Positions 3,785 to 21,089 of a stretch of 21,089 nt of DNA are shown here, in pieces. Every line of letters begins with the position of its first letter. Within the stretch, counting starts at the first letter, position 1. The stretch spans positions 17,246-38,334 of the forward strand of contig JBNPEG010000256.1 in the NCBI GenBank assembly GCA_051117555.1. The letters run 5' to 3'. This DNA is from Elainellaceae cyanobacterium (GTDB lineage Bacteria > Cyanobacteriota > Cyanobacteriia > CAZCXK01). Both the position numbers and the translations under genes were made by a program. The notes beneath the pieces were generated by a model. It had not been told where the DNA came from. It was given only the letters and a program-made list of their open reading frames with translations, and did not search any database.

Positions 3785-4891
3785 TCAGGCAACGATATGC
3801 TGACGAATTTCATCGGCACGGCGTTGACTGGCGACATCGGGAGTGACAATCTCAATTTGCTCGTCACTGCTCGCTCCTAACCCTAGGGCGATCGCCCGTT
3901 GAATTTGCTCTAGCTCCCATACCGAGCCCTGCGCAACCTCGCTAGTCGTACCCAGCGATCGCAAAATCCCAAGCGCGACCACATCCACTGCAACGCGATC
4001 GGTTCCTGCGAGCATCACATTGGCAGGTACTTTATCTCCAGATGCAGGTCCACCTTTCACAAACGCTTCAACTCCATCGAGAAGGACTAAAGCAGGCTGA
4101 TATGCTGCATTGATTTCAGCAATCATCAAGCGCTGATGGGGAGATGAGTGCAAGTCTCTCATGTAGTTGAACGAGTCACCGGGCACATATTTTGCAACCA
4201 TGCCTACTGTGTTTTTCAATGACAGCGTGAAATGCCCGCCGTATCGATGGGTCTTTAAGCAGCAGGTGTTAATCACCGCTCCTGCTTCAAGAATGGGACG
4301 CGCAAATGCAAACCCTTGCTGCCAATGGGTTCCTTCGGCATCGACGTATTGCCATTGGTCAGCGTCCATTTCATCAAACACCAGCGCATTTAGGCCATAT
4401 CGGTCAGCCAGTTCAAATACGCCCTTCTGCTGCATGGCTTGACGAGTCTCTGCCATCCCGGAGCGATCGCCAATGGTCATGCCCCCCGCGCCAGCACCTT
4501 GCAAATCTTGAATCAACGCCTCTAGAAGCTGCGTATCGGTTGCCGCAGGAGCCGCGTCACCAGTGTTATAGTTTGGTTTAAGAAATACTGACTGGCCTTG
4601 GATTCCATCGGGTTGCAGCAGGTCAATTGCCTGATGCGCACCGGCGACGCGATCCTCCGTTTGAATGAGCACGACTCGGCTCATGCCCGTTGACGCAGAG
4701 GTCGGACTTGCAGACGGAGTTGCAGAGGGGGTTGACGGCGACGCGATGGTTTGCGGAGAAGCATCGCCCGCTGGGGAGTTGGAATTCAGCGCTCGACATG
4801 CAGATGGCAAGATAGAGGCTCCGGCGGCCAGCCCTGCGAGATGCAGAAGCTTGCGTCGGTTGTATTTAGCGTTGAAGGGATTGGGTTGCAT
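3785..4891 (-). CDS. DUF362-family protein with twin-arginine lipoprotein signal
   Basis: From ATG 4891: NRRKLL twin-Arg, hydrophobic core, LPSAC lipobox-like site and a Ser/Thr/Pro linker. Then VFLKPN, LKTH...TLSLKN and DRVAVD motifs typical of DUF362. Confidence 0.8.
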   Translation of the reverse strand: MQPNPFNAKYNRRKLLHLAGLAAGASILPSACRALNSNSPAGDASPQTIASPSTPSATPSASPTSASTGMSRVVLIQTEDRVAGAHQAIDLLQPDGIQGQSVFLKPNYNTGDAAPAATDTQLLEALIQDLQGAGAGGMTIGDRSGMAETRQAMQQKGVFELADRYGLNALVFDEMDADQWQYVDAEGTHWQQGFAFARPILEAGAVINTCCLKTHRYGGHFTLSLKNTVGMVAKYVPGDSFNYMRDLHSSPHQRLMIAEINAAYQPALVLLDGVEAFVKGGPASGDKVPANVMLAGTDRVAVDVVALGILRSLGTTSEVAQGSVWELEQIQRAIALGLGASSDEQIEIVTPDVASQRRADEIRQHIVA

Positions 4892-5058
4892 AGTGATTTT
4901 GGCTGATAACAACAAGTCGGCGCATATCCTATCGGCACCCACAGAGATGCATTTGCTTTCGAGGGTAGAATTTACTTCTCGAATGCTTTGCCTGTTTTGA
5001 TTGTAGACAGCATGTCTAAAATTGGGATATTTACCCGATAACCGACACGTCACACGGC

Positions 5059-5850
5059 CTAATCATCAGGCTTTTCGAATAATGCTGGACGATTTAGAAA
5101 ATAGACAACGAGCCCCAAAAAGGGGATGCTCCACGCAATCCAGCGAATGAAAGAATTGTCCCAGTTGCGGCGCAGCATATCATCGTCGACCAGCCATCCT
5201 TGAAACACCCAAAACACCAGCAGATCAACGACAAATGAATAGGCAAGGCGATCGCTCCCAATCAAATTCAATAAGGAATTCCAACGATCATCAATGCTGC
5301 CAAATTCGGGTCGCGCCCATAGTCCCCAAGCGATCGCCACCAAACCAACGCCAAGTAACACAATAGGAAATAAACGACTTTCTGCCAGTTTTTCTAACGG
5401 ACTGAAAGGTGACTTTGGGGTGTCTACATGCGATCGCCGCAAGGCTAGCCAGGGTAAATAAAACACATTGGTCAGCAACGCAGTACCTACCAAAAATGGC
5501 AGCATGGGAATCCGCTGATTGCGTCCATCGATCAAAAATCCCCAAAATAAAAGCCCCCACGTGACCACTATATTGAACAAGGCTTCGAGGGCAGGATTGA
5601 GTGGGGGGGCAGCATCCGGAAACACCGCAGGCAAGACCAGCCAGAAATTCAAGCTTAGATCAACGGCCTCCTGGAGTGTTTCAGGTTGAGTATGCAACAG
5701 TGATGGCCCCGGCGGTATGTCGCTCAGCAGCAAATATCCAACATAAACCCCCCACGCAGTCCATAAAAATGTCTTTGAAAGTAACGCAGCGCGATCGCTT
5801 AAAAACCAATCTGGGATTTGATTTGCAAACTCTTGGATACGGCTAAGCAT
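5059..5850 (-). CDS. Multi-pass membrane protein of unknown function (DUF2834-like)
   Basis: About 6 hydrophobic segments. Motifs NPxLEALFN, IDGRNQRIP, LPWLALR and DDMLRR resemble a conserved cyanobacterial/plastid membrane family. Confidence 0.7.
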   Translation of the reverse strand: MLSRIQEFANQIPDWFLSDRAALLSKTFLWTAWGVYVGYLLLSDIPPGPSLLHTQPETLQEAVDLSLNFWLVLPAVFPDAAPPLNPALEALFNIVVTWGLLFWGFLIDGRNQRIPMLPFLVGTALLTNVFYLPWLALRRSHVDTPKSPFSPLEKLAESRLFPIVLLGVGLVAIAWGLWARPEFGSIDDRWNSLLNLIGSDRLAYSFVVDLLVFWVFQGWLVDDDMLRRNWDNSFIRWIAWSIPFLGLVVYFLNRPALFEKPDD

Positions 5851-6045: not shown

Positions 6046-6516
6046 ATGACACGCACAAGTTTTGTCGTTTTACGGCTCGCAGCAGGGCTTGCAGTCGGTT
6101 TTTGGGGACTGTCTAAGCTCGTTTTCGTTCAGAATTGGGTTGCTCCCTATGAAGGCGCGTTTTACGGAAATTTGCCCGGAAATGGAGCATTGTGGGTTTA
6201 TTTGCTCGGCATTATTCAGCTTTTGATTGCGATCGCCATTATTTTCAATATTTCCCGGCGATTTGCGGCATGGGTTGCGGTCGGTATGTCAGGCATCAAC
6301 CTGATTGCTTCAATTTTGACCGTCATGAAGCCCGAAAATCCTATTTTGGGAAACCCAGCGCCGCTTGGCATCAAGCTGATCTGGTTTTTCTTTGATCCAG
6401 TTGCCATCCTGCTGCTGCTTGCAGGTGTGGCGCTATTACCCAATATCAATCAGATTCGGTCTACGACATCAGACTCACCTGAATTTACGGCTGTAGGTGG
6501 CAATGGTCCTCGATAA
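6046..6516 (+). CDS. DoxX-like membrane protein
   Basis: AGGAGA SD upstream. VLRLAAGL...WGLSKL pattern, LGIIQLLIAIAII and RRFAA match the DoxX pattern; about 4 TM helices. Confidence 0.75.
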   Translation: MTRTSFVVLRLAAGLAVGFWGLSKLVFVQNWVAPYEGAFYGNLPGNGALWVYLLGIIQLLIAIAIIFNISRRFAAWVAVGMSGINLIASILTVMKPENPILGNPAPLGIKLIWFFFDPVAILLLLAGVALLPNINQIRSTTSDSPEFTAVGGNGPR

Positions 6517-8146: not shown

Positions 8147-9952
8147 TTATTGCGACTCATCCATCTGGGTGTCCATCCATGCAGCAATGCCATCCGCTAA
8201 GGCATTCGCCAACTGGCGCTGCGAATTTGGATCAGTAATCCATTCAAATTCGACTGGATTAATCATAAATCCTAATTCGAGCAAGACGGATGGTGCTACG
8301 GTGGGGCGGGTCAGCGCCAAATTATTCCAAAACACACCATAGGACGGGCGATCGAGAGTGTCGACTAAATAATTGTGTAAAAACACCGCGAGACTATGGG
8401 CTTGGGGATGATACCAAAATGTCCCAATGCCCGCCGTGTTAACCGCATCTCCGCTGTCCGGCAGCGCATTGTAGTGAATGCTGAGCGCTAAGTCAGGTTC
8501 AAGCTGGTTGATGATGTCAACGCGATCGCTCGGATATAAATCATCATCGCCCTCGCGGGTCATCACAACCGTTGCGCCCCGGTCAATCAGCTCGTCGCGC
8601 AAGAGGGTTGATACGACCAGGTTGACATCCTTCTCAGGATAGCCGGTAGGGCCGCGTGCCCCTAGATCATTCTCGCTGCCATGTCCGGGATCAAGCAGGA
8701 TCGTCATACCTCGTAAAGTCTGTGCCGGTGAGGAAGACGAGACGAGAGAGGGCGGATGGCGCAGGGAAAGAACCAGCGTCGTGCCGTCATAGCGAAGCTG
8801 ATAGCCCCACTGCTGGTCAGTTTTGAGGCGAAATATATAGTCGATGCGGTCGGGAGCAGGCTGAGTCCAATCGAGGCGATCAATCAACGGATCATCATTG
8901 AGCAAGATGGTGTCAGTTTGGGCAGTGGTGTTGTAGAGCGTCAGGGTAAATGTATTGCTACCTTGTTGAACGCTGACGGGAACCGGAACCTGTAGCGGGA
9001 AATAGATGTCGGTTCGGTCATCCGTCTGGAGGGCGCGGACACTGCGAATGAGCGATCGCGGCGGCACTGCTCCAGGGCGCACATCAACCTGAGAGGCCGC
9101 AATCCATGCCCCATAGTCGAGGCGATACCATTCTCCCTCTCTGCCCGTGATTCGGGCTTGCGTAGTCGGCGGAAGGGGGGTGAGGCGTGAATAGTTGGTG
9201 CTAGGCCCCGTGCGGGCAGTACCCGAATCAGCGGTGACTTCAGCAATTTGCATCGAGGTCGGTGCAAGGATAGTGATCGTCCCCGTAGCAGCGTCACGAA
9301 CCGTTTGCCCGTTTAAGGTCAGATGAAACTCTGGACCTCCTAAATTGCCAGGTTCAGCAAATACGGTGCATCCCTGGTATGATTCTGCCACCGATACTGG
9401 AACGGGTTGATTTTGCGAGGTGAGGACGGCAGAATTGGGCGGCAGCGTCACCGAGCTTGACTGAGCCAAGAGCGGAATCGTTTGATCCCCGATCGCTACC
9501 CTGACAGACGCATTGGGAGGTGCGATCGCCTCGAAGCAAATTAGTTCTCCAGGCATGCGGGCCATATCGACAGCGGGCGTTAACGACCCATCTGCAAAAG
9601 CAACGCCAACGGGGGCAGGAGGGGCAGCCGACTGGCGCGTGACACGAAGTTGAAGATCGTGATCCCCGTAGCTCAAGGTGATCACATTTTCACCGAGTTC
9701 TAACGGAACACTTGGCGCAAAATGCCCGGCAGGGCTGCGCTCAATGATGTCTCCATTAACCGTGACCTCACCGTCGGGAGGAGCAGTACCGATTAGAAAA
9801 ATTTGGTCAGAGGTGGTTTCATGACCATCGGGCGGATAGGCAACAAATAAGGGGTGGTCAGCTCTGGCGATCGCTAGCCCCGCCATACTCACCGTGCCAA
9901 TACTCGTACCCAATATCGTCAGCCCGATCGATGTCATTCCCATCGCATTCAC
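8147..9952 (-). CDS. N-acetylmuramoyl-L-alanine amidase (Amidase_3) with SH3-like domain
   Basis: C-terminal ILLDPGHG, EKDVNL, SIHYNA, SVLLELGF. Central ARTGPST...WYRLDYGAWI SH3b-like segment and an N-terminal signal-like region. Start may be a few codons downstream. Confidence 0.93.
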   Translation of the reverse strand: MNAMGMTSIGLTILGTSIGTVSMAGLAIARADHPLFVAYPPDGHETTSDQIFLIGTAPPDGEVTVNGDIIERSPAGHFAPSVPLELGENVITLSYGDHDLQLRVTRQSAAPPAPVGVAFADGSLTPAVDMARMPGELICFEAIAPPNASVRVAIGDQTIPLLAQSSSVTLPPNSAVLTSQNQPVPVSVAESYQGCTVFAEPGNLGGPEFHLTLNGQTVRDAATGTITILAPTSMQIAEVTADSGTARTGPSTNYSRLTPLPPTTQARITGREGEWYRLDYGAWIAASQVDVRPGAVPPRSLIRSVRALQTDDRTDIYFPLQVPVPVSVQQGSNTFTLTLYNTTAQTDTILLNDDPLIDRLDWTQPAPDRIDYIFRLKTDQQWGYQLRYDGTTLVLSLRHPPSLVSSSSPAQTLRGMTILLDPGHGSENDLGARGPTGYPEKDVNLVVSTLLRDELIDRGATVVMTREGDDDLYPSDRVDIINQLEPDLALSIHYNALPDSGDAVNTAGIGTFWYHPQAHSLAVFLHNYLVDTLDRPSYGVFWNNLALTRPTVAPSVLLELGFMINPVEFEWITDPNSQRQLANALADGIAAWMDTQMDESQ

Positions 9953-11571: not shown

Positions 11572-13239
<1,668 letters not shown>

Positions 13240-13271
13240 CACGTCGTCTTGATTGGTTATTTCTACAGATT

Positions 13272-14156
13272 ATGCTGATCCACCGATTTTCAAGCTTGGG
13301 ATTCATGCTGACGGCAGGGCTGCTCTTGAATGGATGTGCGTCTCAACCGAGTGATCCGATTGGCAAGCTTACCATCGGTATCGTCAGCTATGATTCTGGA
13401 GAACGCACCGTCGAGCAGTATCAGCAGTTTAAGGACTATTTAGCTCGGCAAACTCAGGCTGTCGTTGAGCTTGAACCGGCCTTCAATGAGCTGCAAGCCG
13501 TTGAGCAGATTCAAAAGCAAAATGAATGGTCGATTGTGTTTGCACCACCGGGTTTGGCGGCGATCGCCATTTCAGAAGCGCAATATGTTCCTATCTTCCC
13601 GATTCAAGGCATTCCTAATTTGCGATCGGTGCTAGTGGTGGAAGAGGACAGCGAGATTGAGTCAATCGGGGATTTAGCCAACACGGTGATTGCGCTGGGC
13701 GAACCTGGCTCGGCAACCGGATATTATTTGCCGCTCTATGATCTCTATGGGCTAACGCTGCAAGAGGTTCGATTTGCCCCCACCCCCCGTACCGTCTTAG
13801 AGTGGATTAGTGCCGGGGAAGTGGTGGCTGGGGCAATCGCCGAACCTGAATTTCAGCGATATGAAAATGAATTTCCGGACACCGATTTTCGCATTCTTCA
13901 TACCAGTCGTGTGGTGCCTATCGGGGCTGTCCTAGTCGGCCCCACTGTAGATCGAAACCAGCAGCAACAAATTGAGACGGCGATGCAGGAAGCACCGTCT
14001 AATATTGTAGGCGACGCGGGCTATATTCCCAATTATGACGTTCCTAATTATGATCAATTCATTCAGCTTGTCGAAAAAGTCAGACCCCTCGAAGCGCAAA
14101 TTCTTCAACAGCCTGCTGTATTAACCCTGCCAGCGGAGTCTGACGACGCAGAGTAA
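13272..14156 (+). CDS. PhnD/phosphate-phosphonate-type substrate-binding lipoprotein (orphan)
   Basis: Lipobox LLNGC. RSVLVVEEDS...DLANTVIALGEPGSATGYYLP resembles the PhnD-family core. No permease or ATPase adjacent. Confidence 0.8.
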   Translation: MLIHRFSSLGFMLTAGLLLNGCASQPSDPIGKLTIGIVSYDSGERTVEQYQQFKDYLARQTQAVVELEPAFNELQAVEQIQKQNEWSIVFAPPGLAAIAISEAQYVPIFPIQGIPNLRSVLVVEEDSEIESIGDLANTVIALGEPGSATGYYLPLYDLYGLTLQEVRFAPTPRTVLEWISAGEVVAGAIAEPEFQRYENEFPDTDFRILHTSRVVPIGAVLVGPTVDRNQQQQIETAMQEAPSNIVGDAGYIPNYDVPNYDQFIQLVEKVRPLEAQILQQPAVLTLPAESDDAE

Positions 14157-14233
14157 GCATTGCCCTTGCACCCACATTGGCGATCGCCTGCCCGGTATTT
14201 CGGTGTACCAGTTCAGCACATTGGACGGCTACT

Positions 14234-16348
14234 ATGAACCCTGGATCATCGCCACCTACTCAACGGCATCATTCTCTAGCTGCCATTGTCGTTACGGATG
14301 GTGCTGAATTTAGCGAGTCTCTGGTTGGTGATCCAGGATCTAATCTGACGGCAATTCGGGAGGACCTGCAATCCCTTGCCAATACGGTATGCAATCGCTT
14401 TGGGGGACAGTTGTTCCAGACGAGCGATCGCGGCGTGTTGATGTATTTTACGAGTGCAGTTCAAGCCGTCACGTGCGCCATTAATATTCAAAAAGACCTG
14501 ACCCAAATGACGGTCAACATTCCGCCAGATTCGCTGATTGCGCCTCGTATCGGCATTCACCTGGGCGATGTTGTCTTTAGCGCGACCGATCTTGTTGGAG
14601 AAGGGGTGACCATCGCAAATCGACTATTAGCGGAGGCGTCGCCTGGAGGCATTTGCATTTCTAAAACGGTCTATGATGTCGTCAAGGCGCGACTCAATCT
14701 CAAAGCGGTTTTCATGGGATCAATTGATGTGGATGCATCGCAAGAAACTGTGCAAGCCTACGAAATTTTTCCGGTGATGTCTACCCCTGCATTAGGCAAT
14801 CCAGTCTCTAGCGGTGGGGCGATCGCCCCAGAAACGCTCATTAACAATCGCTATCGGGTGCGCCAAGTGCTAGGGCGGGGCGGCTTCGGACAGACCTATC
14901 TTGCTCACGACACCTATCGCTTCGACGACTTATGCGTTTTAAAGGAATTTGTGCCCCTAACTAAAACGCTGCAACTCGTTGAAAAATCTCGCAAGCTCTT
15001 TGAGCAGGAAGCTCGCGTTCTTTACCAAATTAATCATCCTCAAATCCCCAAATTTTTAGCCTGGTTTACCGAAAATGAGCGATTACTGATTGTTCAAGAA
15101 TACATTGACGGCAAAACCTATTCAGACTTGGTGCGCGATCGCCAGGCTGCCGGTACTCCCTTCTCAGAAGCAGAGGTGATCGAATGGCTCTGGGATCTTC
15201 TGCCCGTTTTAGACTACATTCACGGGATGAATATCGTCCATCGAGACATTTCTCCCGAAAACATCATGTTGCCAAACGGTCAATCTAAGCCGGTCTTGAT
15301 TGATTTTGGCGTCGTCAAGCAGGTCGTGACTCAAATCTGGACTGGGCATGGCGCTCAAGCATCGGGTGGACAAGCATCGGTGGTCGGCAAATTTGGCTAT
15401 GCCCCTCCCGAACAAATGCGCTTAGGTCAATGCTTTCCCTGTAGTGATTTATATGCCCTAGGCATTACGGCAACGGTGTTGCTGACCGCTCAGAAGCCTA
15501 GCCCTGTTCCCGATCCGGTTCCTCTCGATTGGCGACGATTTTGCCACGCCCCCGTGAGCGATCGCTTCGGTCAACTGGTAGACAAAATGCTGGCAGAACG
15601 TCCCAAAGATCGATATCAAAATGCTCGACAGGTGATTGCCGATTTAGAACCCATCCGCGCATCCATGCGGTGGCCTGGTTCGTCGATTTTAGACAAATCC
15701 CCGTTCGAGTCGTCTGACTATCTGCCCAACGCTTCTCTCCAATCGCCCCATCCGTCTGTATCTCGTTCGGCTGCCCCGTCGCCACCCGGTTTACCCCCGC
15801 CCCCCCCGCCCCCTGCCCCATCTGTGGTAGAGCCAGTTCAACCTCCGACTTCCTCCATTACCCCTGACGTTTTAGCCCATTGTCAGCGAGAATTGAGTCG
15901 CTATATTGGGCCAATGGCAGCGTTTGTGGTCGAAGATGTGGTTGCTCAAAAGCCACGCAGCATCGACCAGTTGATTGAGGCACTCGCACGCGAAATTCCG
16001 GATCTCCACATCGCTGAAGACTTTAAGCAATCTCTCAGCCCTAAACGCTACGCGTCACCTCCTCCTCGCCAAAATGCCCCAACTCCAGTGCCCTCGCCAT
16101 CGCCAGCGTCCCCACCATCGTCAAGGCGATCGCCCAACAATCCGGCTATCCTCAACCCAGATTTTATTGAGCGCTGCCAGCAAGAACTGACCCACTGTGT
16201 GGGACCCGTCGCTCAGTTTATTATCGATGACCTGCTATCAGACGACCCCAATCTCAGCCCAGCCCAGCTTGTTGAGGCGATCGCGGCTGAAATTCCGAGT
16301 CCTCAGCAAGCTGAAACGTTTCGGCAGCGTTTAATCCAATCCATGTGA
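14234..16348 (+). CDS. Degenerate class III cyclase domain + Ser/Thr kinase + two C-terminal repeats
   Basis: RIGIHLGDV cyclase core. Kinase motifs GRGGFG, VLKE, HRDISPEN, DFG, YAPPEQ, SDLYALG. Pro-rich linkers and two CQxEL..GPxA..EIP repeats. ATG 14234 chosen by alignment with the paralog. Confidence 0.9.
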   Translation: MNPGSSPPTQRHHSLAAIVVTDGAEFSESLVGDPGSNLTAIREDLQSLANTVCNRFGGQLFQTSDRGVLMYFTSAVQAVTCAINIQKDLTQMTVNIPPDSLIAPRIGIHLGDVVFSATDLVGEGVTIANRLLAEASPGGICISKTVYDVVKARLNLKAVFMGSIDVDASQETVQAYEIFPVMSTPALGNPVSSGGAIAPETLINNRYRVRQVLGRGGFGQTYLAHDTYRFDDLCVLKEFVPLTKTLQLVEKSRKLFEQEARVLYQINHPQIPKFLAWFTENERLLIVQEYIDGKTYSDLVRDRQAAGTPFSEAEVIEWLWDLLPVLDYIHGMNIVHRDISPENIMLPNGQSKPVLIDFGVVKQVVTQIWTGHGAQASGGQASVVGKFGYAPPEQMRLGQCFPCSDLYALGITATVLLTAQKPSPVPDPVPLDWRRFCHAPVSDRFGQLVDKMLAERPKDRYQNARQVIADLEPIRASMRWPGSSILDKSPFESSDYLPNASLQSPHPSVSRSAAPSPPGLPPPPPPPAPSVVEPVQPPTSSITPDVLAHCQRELSRYIGPMAAFVVEDVVAQKPRSIDQLIEALAREIPDLHIAEDFKQSLSPKRYASPPPRQNAPTPVPSPSPASPPSSRRSPNNPAILNPDFIERCQQELTHCVGPVAQFIIDDLLSDDPNLSPAQLVEAIAAEIPSPQQAETFRQRLIQSM

Positions 16349-16353
16349 GTAAA

Positions 16354-16460
16354 ATTGAGATAGCTACATCACTCTTTCAAACAATCTCCGAATCGACAGC
16401 CCCCGATCTACTGTCCGGATATAGGATCGGTTCGGTTGAAAAGATTAGCTATCCCTCAAT
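16354..16460. other. Long nested imperfect inverted repeat between the two kinase genes
   Basis: Collinear pairings ATTGAG/CTCAAT, GATAGCTA/TAGCTATC, TTTCAA/TTGAAA, CCGAA/TTCGG, CCGATC/GATCGG. Confidence 0.6.
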
Positions 16461-16490
16461 GGGGTCAGGGTGTCGGTAGACTTGGTATGA

Positions 16491-18716
16491 ATGAACGCCA
16501 TCGCGCACCTGCCTACTGCGTCACTCTTTCCTGGCACCATGGAACACTCTATTCCGCCTTATTCAATTCGAAATCAGAGCACGTTAGCTGCGATCGTCAT
16601 TACCGATGGAGTCGCATTTAGTGCTCGCATGGCAAGCGATGAAGAACACACCCTATCGCTCATTCATCGCGATCTTAAGCTGATGCGCGAACTCTGCATC
16701 CGATTTGAAGGTCAGGTTTTAAAGTCAACTGGGGATGGCTTACTCATGTATTTTACGAGCGCAATTCAAGCCGTTTCCTGCGCTCTTGAGATTCAAAAAA
16801 CCCTGATCAAACTGGCGTCTCACACCTCGCCGCACAATGTGCTTGTGCATCGAATTGGCATTCATTTGGGTGATGTGTTTTTGAGCGAAGCGGATGTCAT
16901 GGGCAACGGGGTCAATATTGCGGCACGTCTGCAAACTGAAGCAGCTCCTTGGGGACTCTGTATGTCTCAGACGATTTATGATGTAGTCAAAACTCGTCTT
17001 GACGTTGATGCAACCTATCTAGGACCATTACACCTCAAAAATATTCAAGAAACAGTTCCGGCATATCAGGTATTACCGTCATCTACGATTCCTAAGATGG
17101 CGGTAGAGCTGTCTACTCATTCAGAATCGAGTCCAGAAACCTTGATTAATCATCGCTATCGAATCGAAAAGATCTTAGGTCGTGGCGGATTTGGAGTTAC
17201 CTATCTTGCCTCCGATACTCAGCGTTTTGACGACCTCTGCGTGCTCAAAGAATTTTTTCCCACCAGCAAAACCGAATACGTCGTTCAAAAAGCTCGCAAC
17301 CTGTTTGAGCGGGAAGCCAAAACTCTATATCAAATTAATCACCCACAAATTCCTAAATTTTTAGCCTGGTTTACTGATTCAGGACGGCTTTTTATCGTCC
17401 AGGAATATATCAACGGCAAGACGTATTCAAGTTTGCTCAAAGAGCGGAAACAGAAGGGTCGGCTATTTTCTGAAGCGGAAGTCGTTCTATGGTTGAAAAA
17501 TCTCCTGCCCGTTTTGGACTATTTGCATACTCTCAATATCGTGCATCGGGATATTTCGCCAGACAATATTATGTTGCCTCATGGTCGCTCAGCGCCCATG
17601 CTGATTGACTTTGGGCTGGTTAAACAAACTGTTGTAGAAATGTGGGCGATTGATTCTCAAGTTGATACGCTGGTCGGGCAAGCGTCATTTGTGGGGAAGA
17701 TGGGCTATGCACCGCCTGAGCAAATCCGCATGGGGCAGTGTTTTCCGTGTAGTGACCTCTATGCGCTTGGCGTGACTGCTGTGGTGTTTCTCACTGGCAA
17801 AGAGCCAGGACTTTTGATGGATCAGGGCTCTTTAGAATGGCGATGGCAGGCTCATGCCGATGTCAGCAACCCACTAGCTCAGATCCTCAATATTCTGCTC
17901 GCTGAGAAACCAAAGGATCGATATCAGACTGCGCGCGAGGTTATTGCAGATCTGGAACAGATGGAGACATCAGCGGCATACTACTCTGCTGCAACGTTTG
18001 GCTCAACTCGTTACTCGTCCCAGGATATATCTGCCACAGAAGCTACGAATCCTAGTACTAGGGTCGGCGTTTCGGTGTCTGATCCCCCGTCTCAGTCTCA
18101 TGGAGACATGCGGGTGATCACCCCCGGTCATCCTCTGGTTGAGCGATGTCAGCAAGAGCTTGCGCGGTGTATTGGTCCGATGGCAAGCTGTATTCTCAAT
18201 GATGTGTTGACTCTCAGAGCCCCGATGACGGCGCGTCGGTTTGTTGAGGTAGTCGCTGGCGAAATTCCTAACTCGCGGCAAGCTCAGGAATTTAAGACGG
18301 CGATATTCTCAGATTTGAATGCTCCACGTGATGGTTTACCCTCGAGTGGGCGATCGCCCGTATCTCATTCGCCTACCATTTACCCACCCGTACTTCAATC
18401 GCCCTTGCCAGATTCATCGACATCTGAGCTGTTGTCTTCTGCGGTATCGCCTTCCAATCAGGCGTCGTCTGACGTCTCTACTAACCGCGTTTTGTCTCCC
18501 GTCTCTCAGCCCGCACGACTCAATCTCGCATTCATCAACCGCTGTCAGCATGAACTTGCTCGCAGTATTGGCCCTATGGCTAGTTTTATAGTTGATGATG
18601 TGTTAGCGCGATTTCCCGATGCAACGCCTCAAGAATTTATTCAGGCGATCGCCACCGAAATTCCCGATTCAAAACAGTCCCGAGAGTTTCAAAATCGACT
18701 ACTTGATGGAATTTGA
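16491..18716 (+). CDS. Adenylate-cyclase-type class III domain + Ser/Thr kinase + two C-terminal repeats
   Basis: Cyclase motifs intact: ITD, LKSTGDG, RIGIHLGD, DVMGNGVNIAARL, LKN. Kinase motifs GRGGFG, HRDISPDN, DFG, YAPPEQ. Alternative start ATG 16539 aligns better with the paralog. Confidence 0.92.
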   Translation: MNAIAHLPTASLFPGTMEHSIPPYSIRNQSTLAAIVITDGVAFSARMASDEEHTLSLIHRDLKLMRELCIRFEGQVLKSTGDGLLMYFTSAIQAVSCALEIQKTLIKLASHTSPHNVLVHRIGIHLGDVFLSEADVMGNGVNIAARLQTEAAPWGLCMSQTIYDVVKTRLDVDATYLGPLHLKNIQETVPAYQVLPSSTIPKMAVELSTHSESSPETLINHRYRIEKILGRGGFGVTYLASDTQRFDDLCVLKEFFPTSKTEYVVQKARNLFEREAKTLYQINHPQIPKFLAWFTDSGRLFIVQEYINGKTYSSLLKERKQKGRLFSEAEVVLWLKNLLPVLDYLHTLNIVHRDISPDNIMLPHGRSAPMLIDFGLVKQTVVEMWAIDSQVDTLVGQASFVGKMGYAPPEQIRMGQCFPCSDLYALGVTAVVFLTGKEPGLLMDQGSLEWRWQAHADVSNPLAQILNILLAEKPKDRYQTAREVIADLEQMETSAAYYSAATFGSTRYSSQDISATEATNPSTRVGVSVSDPPSQSHGDMRVITPGHPLVERCQQELARCIGPMASCILNDVLTLRAPMTARRFVEVVAGEIPNSRQAQEFKTAIFSDLNAPRDGLPSSGRSPVSHSPTIYPPVLQSPLPDSSTSELLSSAVSPSNQASSDVSTNRVLSPVSQPARLNLAFINRCQHELARSIGPMASFIVDDVLARFPDATPQEFIQAIATEIPDSKQSREFQNRLLDGI

Positions 18717-18717
18717 G

Positions 18718-19644
18718 TTACTCATTAGCATCATCTAAGCTACGCCGACCAATGCGATAGCGTTCTAGTCGCTTCATCGCCATCATCAAACTCATCTTCA
18801 TGCGGCGAAATGCCTCTGCAAGGGTGCCCACTTCGTCCTTCGATACATATTCAAAGTCAGCATCCATGTCTCCCGTGCTCACCGCCTCGGCAGTCATCGC
18901 CATCCGCTTGAGGGGGCGAATTACGAAACGTTTTAGCCATAGATTAACCATGAAAATTGCCGCAGCAAACGTCAACATCACGATTCCCATAATCAAAACA
19001 AATGACTGGCGAGCGCTTTGTCGGACTTGGCTAGCAGGAACCGAAATCATTTGAGCCCCCACAATTTCATTGAGTTCCCACCCAAACCCGTTTGCTGTCC
19101 CATAAAAATCGATCATGCTGCGGGGCGCTTCTTCCGGTACGCTATGGCATTCTAGGCAGCTTGCAGACGAAATTCTGATTGGACGAGCTAGATAAAACAA
19201 GTCTCCACTGGGCGTTGTGCGAAATCCTTTCACCTCTTGGAGATTTTCATTATCTCGAAAGCGATTGACAACATCGGCTTCAAATGCGTCTGCCTTGTCT
19301 CGAAGATTTGTTGGATTGAGCGTCGCTTCTTTGTAAAAGAACTCGCTATAGGATTGGTTTGACCGGAGTTTTTCAAAGACTTCTCGTGCTGAATAGGCTG
19401 GGACCGTTTCTGGTAAAAACTCCTCTTCTAATCGATCCGATAATTCAGGGTTCACCTGGGTGTCGGTGTAATTACGCACCGAGTTCATGGTTTCGATGAG
19501 CATCAGTGCTTTAGATGCGACCGTGTTGCGGGAGTTGTAGTTGAGAATGGCTGCTAAAGCGCTACCGCTGGCAAGCACCCCAATCAAGAACACAGCTAAC
19601 AAAAGAATCGTAAACTTTTGACCTAACTTAAGTTTCTTGAACAT
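18718..19644 (-). CDS. c-type heme (DUF3365/Tll0287-like) sensor with HAMP domain, no output domain
   Basis: TM1, extracytoplasmic domain with EATLNPTNLRDKAD and CLECH, TM2, HAMP (IRPLKRM...VSTGD...DEVGTLAEAFRRM), then a short tail. AGGAG SD upstream. Confidence 0.88.
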   Translation of the reverse strand: MFKKLKLGQKFTILLLAVFLIGVLASGSALAAILNYNSRNTVASKALMLIETMNSVRNYTDTQVNPELSDRLEEEFLPETVPAYSAREVFEKLRSNQSYSEFFYKEATLNPTNLRDKADAFEADVVNRFRDNENLQEVKGFRTTPSGDLFYLARPIRISSASCLECHSVPEEAPRSMIDFYGTANGFGWELNEIVGAQMISVPASQVRQSARQSFVLIMGIVMLTFAAAIFMVNLWLKRFVIRPLKRMAMTAEAVSTGDMDADFEYVSKDEVGTLAEAFRRMKMSLMMAMKRLERYRIGRRSLDDANE

Positions 19645-19668
19645 GCGATCGCTCCTAAAGTTAAGAGG

Positions 19669-19762
19669 TATAGCCCTACGGGCTTGGGTGTGTGGGTAGA
19701 ATCTCTGTACCGTGGGAGTTCTACACGCGTTTGAGGGCCTTACGCTCTCGCGTTAGGCTATA
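19669..19762. repeat. TATAGC-ended hairpin element, copy 5 (94 bp)
   Basis: TATAGCCCTACGGGCT...CCTTACGCTCTCGCGTTAGGCTATA with inner stem GTAGAA...TTCTAC. Confidence 0.85.
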
Positions 19763-19788
19763 AGCTTAAGTAGAAATGACCAAACTGA

Positions 19789-19891
19789 TATGGCGATTCT
19801 AAATCGCTTGTGAACCGTGGGTGAGCGGTGGGTGAGCGGTGGGGTGGTCGGCGATCGCCCCACCGCTCACAACCCATCTGGGATTGCTATA
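19789..19891. repeat. Second-type TATAGC-ended hairpin element (103 bp)
   Basis: Arms TATGGCGATTCTAAATCGCTTGTGA / TCACAACCCATCTGGGATTGCTATA (18/25 complementary). Inner perfect stem GTGAGCGGTGGGG/CCCCACCGCTCAC around a HIP1 site, plus an 11-bp tandem duplication. Confidence 0.8.
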
Positions 19892-20296
19892 TGATTTGAA
19901 GATATTAGATTAGGGGCTACAGAGTGAAAAATCCAGTCCTTTTCTTAATACATCACGGCGATCGCCCAAAGATGCTAGCGAATTAAGAGAGCATTAATAT
20001 CGACCTATTCAGATATCCTTGTCATTCCTACAAATTTAGAAAATTCGATTCCGGGAAAGCGCGGAGGTAAATTTGGAAAATTTGAACTCTGCGTTTCATA
20101 CACGATTTGGGACGCGTTCACACCGCGTTCTAAAGGTAAAGTGTCTCTGTCAAAAGAACGTGAGTCGCCAAGACAACGTGGAAATTAATAAGTTCTACAC
20201 GCACACTTAGTACAAGATGGCGGAAGTTTCATACCCGTAGTGGTGTGACATGCCTGAAATAGTGGAAATTCTTAAAGGGCTGAATCTCTTGAATCC

Positions 20297-20393
20297 GGTG
20301 CGTTATGCTGCGCTAACGACGCCCCTATTTTAGCTGTGCCACGCCAGTAGTGTGAGCGTCTCGCTCACGTCGCGGGCAAGATGTCTGCACTTA
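20297..20393. repeat. REP/REPIN-like palindromes
   Basis: GTAG-TGTGAGCG-TCT-CGCTCAC (20347-20368), followed by the degenerate inverted partner GCGGGCAAGATGTCTGCACT. A minus-strand ATAG-GGCGTCGTTA...TAACGCACC lies at 20297-20327. Confidence 0.6.
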
Positions 20394-20426
20394 AATGGTT
20401 GGCTTATTTTTGCCAAATAGTACTAG

Positions 20427-20966
20427 TCACGGGTTTGGTTGAAGCAACCAGACAGACTCCACTGACGCAACTTTTCCTTTTAATCCACCCGCTACGCTTT
20501 TGCGGTCGACACGTTTCAATCGGTAGATGGTGCCATAGAGTTGCTCGATTTCATGCTTATCGACCGAAAACGGGGGGCCATTCATCAGCAACGGGTCATA
20601 TTCATAGACAATCAGAAGCTGTGAGGCTCCATTCGTTAAGTTTATGAGGTGCGAAGCGTATTTTTGTCTTGTTTTTTCAGGTAGTGCAACTAACGCGGCG
20701 CGATCGTATATCGCGTTTATACGCCCAAGATATTCGGCAGATAGATCAAAAATGTCTCCTACAAATATGTCGATATCTTTGGATCTGTAATGAAGCAAAT
20801 TACCGACTGTGGCAATTTTCGGTTCCAGCCCAAGCTCTTTAAATAGCTTATTAACGGCGAAAGCGCTTAACTCTACACCAACGACTCGAAAACCCTGAGA
20901 CAGCAACCAACTTATATCGAGGGTCATGCCACACAGCGGCAGAAGTATCCGATCACCTTTTACTAG
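20427..20966 (-). pseudogene. tpm: Thiopurine S-methyltransferase, 5' end separated by an IS insertion
   Basis: LPLCG, VVGVELS, FVGDIFDL, IYDRAALVALP and GPPFSV motifs. The usual N-terminal ~30 aa (W..W...IGFH) is absent; upstream sequence switches to an IS end after CTAG. Confidence 0.8.
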
Positions 20967-21089
20967 ACTCATATCTTGCACCTAGGCAGCAGGAATGAGA
21001 AAAAAGGGCGTGGAACCAATAAATTGCAAGTCTCATGAAGATCCTTGCCCACGCCCAAGAGCTAATTTACCAACTGTTGGACAGGATGC
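20967..21089 (+). mobile_element. Left end of an IS701-like insertion sequence (partial)
   Basis: Begins ACTCATATCTTGCACC directly after CTAG (20963-20966). Inverted repeat GGGCGTGG/CCACGCCC spans the transposase start. Family recognition is from memory of cyanobacterial IS701-like ends. Confidence 0.65.
21035..21089 (+). CDS. Transposase N-terminus (MKILAHAQELIYQLLDRM...), partial
   Basis: Open frame to the window end. Resembles recalled N-termini of cyanobacterial IS701-like transposases (..ILAHAQ.LVY.LL.LMPS). Confidence 0.6.
   Translation, partial: MKILAHAQELIYQLLDRM

Follow-up and report, generated by a model that had tools for sequence, protein, structure and literature searches.

A probable split transmembrane signalling unit in a cyanobacterium: an output-less haem c receptor, two cyclase-kinases with STAC-like modules and a candidate lipoprotein partner

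How a receptor signals when a HAMP domain is all that it has in the cytoplasm has been an open question since Af1503, and the first experimental answer, a docked kinase in one proteobacterium, came in a 2026 preprint. Here we describe a related locus in an Elainellaceae cyanobacterium (GenBank assembly GCA_051117555.1, contig JBNPEG010000256.1, positions 17,246 to 38,334; this stretch of 21,089 nucleotides is called the window below). Four of its genes, encoding a binding lipoprotein, two soluble cyclase-kinases and a haem receptor without an output domain, probably work together as a single transmembrane receptor system, divided among several proteins and of the Cache_haem-HAMP (CHH) type; we put the probability of this reading at about 0.72.

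The closest described system is that of Pseudomonas azotoformans (Deshpande, Xu, Dunleavy, Zhulin and Crane, bioRxiv, May 2026). According to the parts of the preprint covered here, its CHH receptor binds the kinase from its own operon with nanomolar affinity, and in a 3.47 Å cryo-electron microscopy map the two C-terminal helical bundles of the kinase touch two HAMP subunits (10.64898/2026.05.25.727664). The contacting helices are IGPLARFLVRKSLN and IGPIARIVVSRALR, which lie in two pseudo-symmetric bundles. Nitric oxide (NO) on the haem enhances phosphorylation of Thr256 in the receptor's HAMP domain, and direct control of the catalytic domain was thought unlikely by the authors. A companion preprint, again in the parts covered, describes DUF3365 as a haem c Cache family and reports that a P. 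azotoformans member with an isolated HAMP domain binds NO (10.64898/2026.02.01.703092). In the main text of the first preprint, so far as it was covered, phosphonate-type binding proteins, cyanobacteria, cyclase fusions and STAC are not mentioned, and no paper on the cyanobacterial system was found in a literature search.

Two other systems are relevant. Af1502 of Archaeoglobus fulgidus folds into a bundle of four helices, the first two of which are joined by an LGPx(x)A motif, and its gene is coupled to those of Af1503-type receptors, in which HAMP is the sole cytosolic part (PMC4834066, in the part covered). AioX, ArxX and ArrX constitute a subfamily of the PhnD fold whose members stand first in a signalling chain that includes a sensor kinase; AioX has Ser161 and Ser163 in its loop, and the AioX-type pocket for arsenic oxyanions consists of Tyr, Cys, Tyr, Ser, Ser, His and Asp (PMC5908839, likewise in part).

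The four open reading frames (ORFs) are flanked by the genes for CTP synthase (11599-13239) and thiopurine methyltransferase (20427-20981), and their limits are exactly those given in an earlier note on this DNA, which had read them as one split-receptor pathway. Their features are as follows (aa, amino acids; HMM, hidden Markov model; TM, transmembrane helix).

13272..14156, + strand: PhnD/AioX-type solute-binding lipoprotein, 294 aa (PF12974 Phosphonate-bd, E 8.8e-32)
14177..16348, + strand: kinase 1, 723 aa from TTG, with an ATG at 14234 (Guanylate_cyc 24.3 bits, cut-off 21.9; Pkinase E 2.3e-33)
about 14276-14776, + strand: cyclase-homology domain of kinase 1, degenerate
14852-15631, + strand: Ser/Thr kinase domain of kinase 1, HRDISPEN and DFG present
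15848..16042, + strand: putative docking module 1 of kinase 1, IGPMA helix (module HMM 79.9 bits; alignment)
16142..16336, + strand: putative docking module 2 of kinase 1, VGPVA helix, C-terminal (module HMM 93.7 bits)
16491..18716, + strand: kinase 2, 741 aa (Guanylate_cyc 32.8 bits; Pkinase E 5.7e-35)
about 16578-17081, + strand: cyclase-homology domain of kinase 2, canonical motif residues all kept
17157-17939, + strand: Ser/Thr kinase domain of kinase 2
18114..18308, + strand: putative docking module 1 of kinase 2 (module HMM 75.6 bits)
18510..18704, + strand: putative docking module 2 of kinase 2, C-terminal, predicted four-helix bundle (module HMM 83.2 bits)
18718..19644, - strand: output-less receptor, 308 aa (Tll0287-like/DUF3365, PF11845, E 1.7e-42; HAMP at residues 236-286)
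about 19543-19614, - strand: receptor TM1 (hydropathy)
19036-19530, - strand: receptor periplasmic Cache_haem domain (Pfam)
19144..19158, - strand: CLECH haem c attachment motif, residues 163-167 with C163, C166 and H167 (invariant in 86/86 relatives)
about 18934-19002, - strand: receptor TM2 (hydropathy)
18787-18939, - strand: receptor HAMP, then a 22-residue tail (Pfam)
19645..20426, - strand: 782-bp non-coding stretch 5' of the receptor gene, presumably its own promoter region

Each part had been described in the earlier note as incomplete by itself, and this description holds. The receptor chain carries CLECH at residues 163-167 and HAMP at 236-286 of 308 and continues for merely 22 residues after HAMP, which is its sole cytoplasmic domain. 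In both kinases, which lack PASTA and TM segments, a class III cyclase-homology domain at the N-terminus is followed by a Hanks-type kinase domain and a repeated C-terminal unit; in neither does any 19-residue hydropathy window reach 1.6, so that no hydrophobic segment is present. No permease or ATPase gene adjoins the lipoprotein gene in the window, where the nearest ATP-binding cassette (ABC) ATPase is at 295-1284. The kinases are tandem paralogues, 46% identical and both with Pro-rich linkers. The receptor gene is convergent with them, with stop codons only 1 nt apart (18716/18718).

The receptor is the single full-length copy of its family in this genome. Its hydropathy plot has two stretches of 19-residue windows at or above 1.6, near residues 5-36 and 211-242. 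Relatives likewise stop about 10-30 residues past HAMP, and most top matches are open frames of about 300-350 aa. Among 86 relatives, the haem-attachment residues C163, C166 and H167 are invariant, as are 20-odd periplasmic positions, including K105, P111, T112, D116, E122, Y151, Y181 and W189; so too are Ser256 and Gly258, where HAMP helix 1 ends and the HAMP connector starts. Ser256-Thr257-Gly258 is conserved at this place, and Ser256 or Thr257 may correspond to the published phospho-threonine (Thr256). Beyond CxxCH, the same set has no further invariant Cys, nor any invariant His or Met. The haem of Tll0287 has His/Cys ligation. Since no such residue is conserved, the distal side of the haem would differ from that of Tll0287, which suits a ligand-binding sensor.

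The receptor-kinase half of the unit was examined through the C-terminal repeats. The repeats that the earlier note had seen in the kinases were confirmed: at the C-terminus of either kinase lies a pair of 65-residue four-helix modules, each with an (I/V)GPxA helix, and a module HMM run against the 28,926 ORFs of this genome matched kinases 1 and 2 only. The helices in the window kinases are IGPMAAFVVEDVVA, VGPVAQFIIDDLLS, IGPMASCILNDVLT and IGPMASFIVDDVLA, and the consensus is F..C..EL...IGPIA.......L...P......LV..LA..IP....A..FR..LL, with G21 and P22 invariant in 25/25 copies and IGPIA as the consensus of the motif. Pfam has no family for the module: one fragment gave no match, and for the others NGO1945_C was the sole match (E 0.0013 and 0.016). 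An AlphaFold2 model of the second copy in kinase 2 was a four-helix bundle (mean predicted confidence, pLDDT, 90.5; helices 6-20, 24-34, 40-50 and 54-64), in which the GP motif is at the start of helix 2.

In motif, position and predicted fold the modules are alike to the docking element of the CHH kinase, and their identification with that element is supported by this likeness. The non-covalent relay from HAMP to the kinases that the earlier note proposed is therefore well supported, as the dyad of IGPxA modules is the HAMP-binding element in the cryo-EM precedent, so far as the preprint was covered. In common with that system, the locus encodes a haem c Cache domain, two transmembrane helices and HAMP as the sole cytoplasmic part, together with linked soluble PknB-like kinases that lack PASTA and transmembrane segments and end in a dyad with an IGPxA recognition helix. 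It differs in several respects. The host is a cyanobacterium; the receptor gene, instead of sharing an operon with the kinase genes, converges on them; the kinases form a pair of paralogues with N-terminal cyclase-homology domains and the catalytic loop HRDISP[DE]N; no PP2C gene was seen in the window or in 16 annotated loci; and a PhnD-type lipoprotein, which does not occur in the main text of the preprint as covered, is a conserved candidate for a third partner. The receptor-kinase relay is thus already known, and the locus is a cyanobacterial variant of the CHH receptor and its docked kinase. For the receptor-kinase half, the earlier note's statement that it knew of no characterised system so composed no longer holds. 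The lipoprotein partner, the cyclase domain, the paired paralogous kinases, the STAC likeness and the other module carriers are absent from the covered parts of both preprints.

The module was compared with known structures. In a Foldseek search of the PDB the top hit of the model was Af1502 (probability 0.92, TM-score 0.69, root-mean-square deviation 2.6 Å over 60/68 residues, E about 1), and Af1502 was again the top hit of the module profile among 177,635 PDB sequences (E 0.062, 16.3 bits), aligned over the IGPIA helix; neither score is significant by itself. Af1502 is the founding STAC domain. Both systems couple a HAMP-only receptor to a four-helix bundle of about 65 residues (two alpha-hairpins) with a GP motif. 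Unlike the modules of the window kinases, Af1502 stands alone, with no enzyme attached and no shown binding to HAMP, and its likeness to the module is weak by E-value (0.062; Foldseek about 1). The docking module is probably a STAC domain, judging by profile and model together. Bacterial STAC has been described, in the portion of that literature covered, as the domain that joins SLC5 transporters to histidine kinases, CbrA and CrbS among them; if the module is STAC, the Af1503/Af1502 puzzle, the SLC5-STAC kinases and the CHH receptors become linked.

Co-conservation of the parts was determined in 401 genomes of the class, in which each part was searched separately and the coordinates were compared by script. 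The counts include close kin, such as a block of Nostoc assemblies, and are counts of genomes and not of independent events. The receptor family was found in 174/401 genomes (E 1e-10, longer forms with outputs included), the lipoprotein in 113/401 (E 1e-25), the cyclase-homology domain in 122/401 (E 1e-12) and the module profile in 131/401 (E 1e-6). A listed receptor gene lay on the same contig within 10 kb of 88 of the 117 lipoprotein genes. In 66 of these pairs the two genes are divergent neighbours 34-778 bp apart and in one they are in tandem; in the other 21 one or two kinase genes lie between them and the receptor gene is convergent, which is the order in the window. The lipoprotein and a short receptor (at most 400 aa) occurred together in 104 of the 113 lipoprotein genomes.

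The module behaves in the same way. From the 150 module matches listed, 126 module genes were reconstructed (180 further matches lie outside these). Among the listed matches, 74 of the 126 are within 5 kb of a listed receptor gene, of which 55 are less than 500 bp from it and 69 are convergent with it, tail to tail; 83 of the 126 are near a receptor or lipoprotein gene. The tallies of module, receptor and lipoprotein also run together by family: 17, 17 and 16 of 39 genomes in family f18, 7, 6 and 6 of 7 in f16, and 22, 25 and 22 of 39 in f17. The cyclase domain does not track the other parts (1/39 in f18, 0/7 in f16, 34/39 in f9). It was considered as the conserved link and rejected, because it is absent in families that have receptor, lipoprotein and module (f16 0/7, f18 1/39).

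A set of 87 lipoprotein-receptor loci (3-kb flanks, some cut by contig ends) was fetched and annotated together with the window by local profiles. A module gene was present in 63 of the 88, and 51 of these 63 have it convergent with the receptor gene and closer than 300 bp to it; among the module-bearing partners in these loci 35/70 are kinases without any other enzymatic domain. In 53 convergent pairs of receptor and module gene (loci L003-L089) the median gap from stop to stop is 19 nt, and 13 pairs overlap. With stops so close, neither gene has room for a terminator of its own outside the other; the overlapping 3' ends, or transcriptional interference, are possibly regulatory.

The tail-to-tail partner was also recorded in a set of 16 loci, made up of receptor neighbours in complete or long genomes of the class, whose flanks carry photosystem II and phycobilisome genes and so mark them as cyanobacterial. 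Seven loci have a Ser/Thr kinase of 440-520 aa in this place, three a cyclase-homology protein of about 380-420 aa that lacks a kinase domain, one a cyclase-kinase and one a caspase-like protein. Eleven of these 12 partners end in one or two modules, and the caspase-like one has three copies by local profiles. A replicate was made by receptor alone in 79 named cyanobacterial records, 66 of which had enough flank. A module gene was found at 57 of the 66 receptor loci and a lipoprotein gene at 42; both partners were present at 37, the module alone at 20, the lipoprotein alone at 5 and neither at 4. A scan of the collection gave at least 589 receptor-encoding stretches, and the 80 that were kept are nearly all cyanobacterial.

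The neighbourhood analysis suggested by the earlier note thus came out in favour of the association: receptor, lipoprotein and module gene cluster in several gene orders in many cyanobacterial families. With S for the lipoprotein gene, K for the kinase gene and H for the receptor gene, the orders vary by lineage (S>K><H; K><H S>; S>K> with H elsewhere) while the partners stay together. Because many of the sampled genomes are close kin, the distinct gene orders are a better argument than raw genome counts. The distance matrices of receptor and lipoprotein correlate with r = 0.805, against at most 0.092 in 500 permutations; this was set aside as evidence, since a shared species history gives the same value.

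Some loci of these sets are unusual. L016 (G062:C1:3173777-3175653) has two tandem receptor genes beside one lipoprotein gene and one module kinase, and a cytochrome b561 gene follows the lipoprotein gene. L093 is a receptor locus whose record bears the title of a plasmid from a Leptolyngbya assembly. L102 is a 3.8-kb contig with a 59% identical receptor, filed under an Acetobacteraceae bin and probably a binning error.

The range of proteins that carry the module was examined in 1.84 billion cluster representatives, in which the profile matched 3,162 proteins with E 1e-3 as the threshold and 1,320 with E 1e-10. Pfam scans covered 116 of the best 150 matches. A protein kinase domain was found in 41 of the 116 (three also with a cyclase domain and two also with CHAT), a HisKA_3/HATPase_c core in 9, a cyclase domain only in 7, Peptidase_C14 in 4, CHAT only in 3 and an EF-hand pair in 2; the remaining 50 matched no family and are mostly short, and no TIR domain was seen in the 116. 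In the fetched loci, caspase-like (Peptidase_C14), HisKA_3-HATPase_c and CHAT-kinase carriers adjoin the receptor gene tail to tail (L012:3425-5890, L051:4954-7146, L083:314-2767, L076:1687-2916 and L021:3963-6326). The module is probably a general plug that lets output-less receptors use exchangeable enzymes. At L078:1420-2835, a kinase that is tail to tail with a receptor gene has a PsbP-like C-terminal domain in place of the docking module.

The same module on effectors of unrelated chemistry suits a receptor with exchangeable outputs, and so bears on another explanation of the receptor-kinase pairing: that the haem protein is a membrane anchor and a substrate instead of a sensor, the kinases being regulated in some other way and HAMP serving as a docking or phosphorylation site for feedback or localisation. 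The readout in the covered parts of the CHH preprint is indeed phosphorylation of the receptor's own HAMP threonine, direct catalytic control being thought unlikely there, and no downstream targets are known. The invariance of CxxCH and of much of the periplasmic domain argues for a sensor, however, as does the homologue, in which, again in the parts covered, NO binding alters phosphorylation across the membrane. The anchor explanation seems improbable, and a sensing receptor is preferred.

The lipoprotein is the least secure member of the unit. Its signal peptide ends at the lipobox Cys22, and C22, N72, E73, W86, Y105, G146, S147 and Y152 are invariant in 86/86 relatives, among which the loop G146-S147-A-T-G-Y-Y152 is invariant or nearly so. 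Since its score against the NCBI PhnD equivalog is far below the cut-off (57.6 bits against 261.1), the lipoprotein is not, by this comparison, a PhnD orthologue, and the best match to the permease PhnE in this genome also falls short (57.8 bits against 216.7). The earlier note's remark that it lacks a transporter extends to its relatives, as a transporter operon is attached to the lipoprotein gene at 0/16 annotated loci. Longer, fused forms of the lipoprotein were not found at E 1e-10, which is weak evidence.

The best solved relative is ArrX (6x8w; E 8.8e-5, 25 bits), a weak match in which S147 aligns with the first Ser of the ArrX S-F-S loop and only Tyr50 and Ser147 align clearly with pocket residues; the second pocket Tyr is not aligned. 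As with AioX, ArxX and ArrX, the window protein has the PhnD fold, has no transporter and is encoded beside a membrane sensor. Unlike in the AioX and ArrX systems, the partner here is an output-less haem receptor and not a histidine kinase, and there is no response regulator; no histidine kinase/regulator pair is conserved next to the lipoprotein in the 16 annotated loci. The SxS loop of ArrX is S-A-T here. The ligand might be a small oxyanion, which is a guess. Periplasmic binding proteins modulate transmembrane sensors in LuxP-LuxQ and TorT-TorS. The same logic is proposed for the window, the binding-protein families being unrelated and those sensors, unlike this receptor, having a kinase output of their own. 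Gene neighbourhood and ArrX as the nearest solved relative make the lipoprotein a candidate co-receptor, and this is the weakest link in the proposal.

It may instead lie outside the signalling unit, the receptor-kinase pairing being real and the lipoprotein being the binding protein of a distant ABC system or a neighbour kept through a shared divergent promoter. This genome does have three other PF12974 matches and many ABC permease-like genes, and the lipoprotein gene starts 32 bp behind the CTP synthase gene, with which it could be read. A lipoprotein gene is missing within 6 kb at 24 of the 66 receptor loci of the replicate, and the covered parts of the proteobacterial preprint do not mention such a protein. 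A bystander would not be expected, however, to have 88 of 117 homologues no further than 10 kb from a receptor gene, in three or more gene orders, or to occur together with the receptor in 104 of 113 genomes; moreover, the protein is far below the PhnD cut-off, no PhnE in the genome reaches its own, no transporter operon is attached at the annotated loci, and the nearest solved relative, ArrX, is itself a sensor protein. We consider it unlikely that the lipoprotein is a bystander, and a periplasmic partner of the receptor remains the preferred role.

Whether the unit could also make a cyclic nucleotide depends on the N-terminal domains of the kinases. Their Pfam scores, 24.3 bits for kinase 1 and 32.8 bits for kinase 2, are barely over the gathering score of 21.9 (PF00211). 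The best PDB match of the kinase 2 domain is 3mr7 (E 3.1e-25), an uncharacterised structural-genomics protein of the cyclase family, and the second is the mycobacterial cyclase Ma1120 (E 8.7e-15). Its motifs are TD, LKSTGDG, DVMGNGVNIAARL and LKNIQE, and they are conserved in 24/27 relatives; the roles assigned to the residues (two metal Asp, substrate Lys/Asp, transition-state Asn/Arg) are those of class III cyclases in general. In fold and motif positions the domain resembles the minimal class III adenylyl cyclases (Ma1120, 4wp9; Rv1900c LipJ, 1ybt), unlike which it is fused to a Ser/Thr kinase and docking modules. The copy in kinase 1 is degenerate. The motif positions have been lost in just 3 of the 27 relatives: kinase 1 and two orthologues of it, from one small order. 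In these, Gln takes the place of Lys, Arg or a shifted Asp that of the second metal Asp, Thr or Ala that of Asn, and Asp that of the C-terminal Lys. Since kinase 1 lacks these residues, output of cyclic AMP (cAMP) is conceivable for kinase 2 only, for which the retained motifs make it plausible.

A less probable alternative is that neither domain makes a cyclic nucleotide and that both serve only in dimerisation or nucleotide-binding regulation, phosphorylation being the sole output. The loss of the four motif residues in kinase 1, the marginal Pfam scores, the uncharacterised nature of 3mr7 and the prevalence of module partners elsewhere without a cyclase domain (35/70 kinase-only) are all consistent with this. 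On the other side, every canonical motif position is kept in 24/27 relatives, the second-best PDB relative is a cyclase, the cyclase domain is the sole enzymatic part ahead of the modules in 8 module-bearing relatives, and canonical FHA-GAF-cyclase genes adjoin a docked kinase gene at two loci, L006 and L011. A purely regulatory role is therefore not preferred, and a catalytic domain in kinase 2 is kept in the proposal.

The kinase domains have a peculiarity of their own. In the catalytic loops of both (window 15200-15223 and 17508-17531) Ser replaces the catalytic-loop Lys. HRDISP[DE]N occurs in 19/19 cyclase-kinase fusions (L015-L038) and HRDISP[DEGA]N in 7 of the 35 kinase-only partners, most of which have HRD[IL]KPxN; DFG is present in fusions and kinase-only partners alike. 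In a tree of 82 kinase domains, from a quick search with SH-aLRT support only, kinases 1 and 2 are sister groups, each with orthologues in two related genomes, from which the duplication appears to predate the split of those genomes. Module-bearing kinases are interspersed among module-less ones in the same tree, and its well-supported branches require at least 5 gains or losses. There are about 30 kinase genes in this genome. Genes for FHA-GAF-adenylate cyclases adjoin the docked kinase gene at L006:9442-11109 and L011:9765-11384, as does a gene for an FHA-FHA-ABC transporter at L008:8347-11082. These FHA-bearing neighbours are candidate phospho-threonine-reading targets.

In the proposed mechanism the receptor would be a dimer with a covalent haem c in its periplasmic Cache domain and HAMP as the sole cytoplasmic part, and both soluble enzymes would dock on HAMP through the two STAC-like modules at their C-termini, each module taking one HAMP subunit. 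When the haem changes state (on meeting a gas such as NO, or in redox state), the signal would pass through HAMP to the docked Ser/Thr kinase and, in kinase 2, to the apparently intact class III cyclase domain as well. Kinase 1, a duplicate with a decayed cyclase domain, would probably compete for the receptor or pair with kinase 2. The lipoprotein would be a periplasmic partner of the receptor and would most likely bring a second input, a small oxyanion, as AioX and ArrX do for sensor kinases. Domain content, the identity of the module, its exclusivity to two genes of the genome and the clustering of the genes are direct observations; nanomolar binding of modules to HAMP and NO-enhanced phosphorylation of a HAMP threonine were shown for the gammaproteobacterial CHH pair. 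That both hold here is inferred, and so are the ligands, a cAMP output and contact between lipoprotein and receptor.

Several points weigh against this proposal. We infer contact between the lipoprotein and the receptor from gene neighbourhood alone, and about 20 genomes have the receptor and no lipoprotein match, in addition to the 24/66 replicate loci noted above. The trio is not obligatory, as a module gene is missing from the fetched stretch at 25 of the 88 lipoprotein-receptor loci, and the counts overstate the number of events because related genomes are not independent. The CHH preprint is not peer reviewed, and the module is identified by its agreement with what the covered parts give for the docking element: a pair of 14-residue motifs, the fold and the position (10.64898/2026.05.25.727664). 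The cyclase domain is barely over the Pfam cut-off, with residue roles taken over from class III cyclases in general, and the chemistry of the kinases may differ, judging by the absence from the fusions of the catalytic-loop Lys of typical Ser/Thr kinases. Finally, co-expression of receptor and kinases is not given, since the receptor gene is read from the other strand and is preceded by 782 bp of its own.

The locus suggests that the mechanism described for the CHH receptor is widespread in cyanobacteria, whose Ser/Thr kinases, with inputs that are mostly unknown, would gain a defined upstream receptor. If the conserved periplasmic lipoprotein is a true partner, the result is a two-input sensor, and cyclase domains on the docking module would connect a periplasmic haem sensor to cAMP. 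A joint reading can be put forward tentatively, as something that may well not hold in full: the STAC-like plug would drive kinases, class III cyclases, caspase/CHAT proteases, NarL-type histidine kinase cores and EF-hand proteins; the lipoprotein would bind the haem Cache domain and add a solute to the gas or redox input; and the two kinase-cyclases would compete for one HAMP dimer, the dead cyclase being a cAMP attenuator.

Within 19645-20426 there is no ORF of 60 aa or more wholly inside, no Rfam family and no tRNA, and Rfam and tRNA scans of the whole window gave no matches. A scan of 13000-20500 for promoter and terminator consensus sites gave 9 and 9 sites against 8.4 and 7.8 in shuffled sequences and is uninformative. 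The ORFs at 5059-5850 and 6046-6516 matched no Pfam family, 3785-5053 encodes a 422-aa DUF362 protein, and 8147-9952 encodes a 601-aa Amidase_3 protein with SH3_3 and with an N-terminal region that resembles glucodextranase B.

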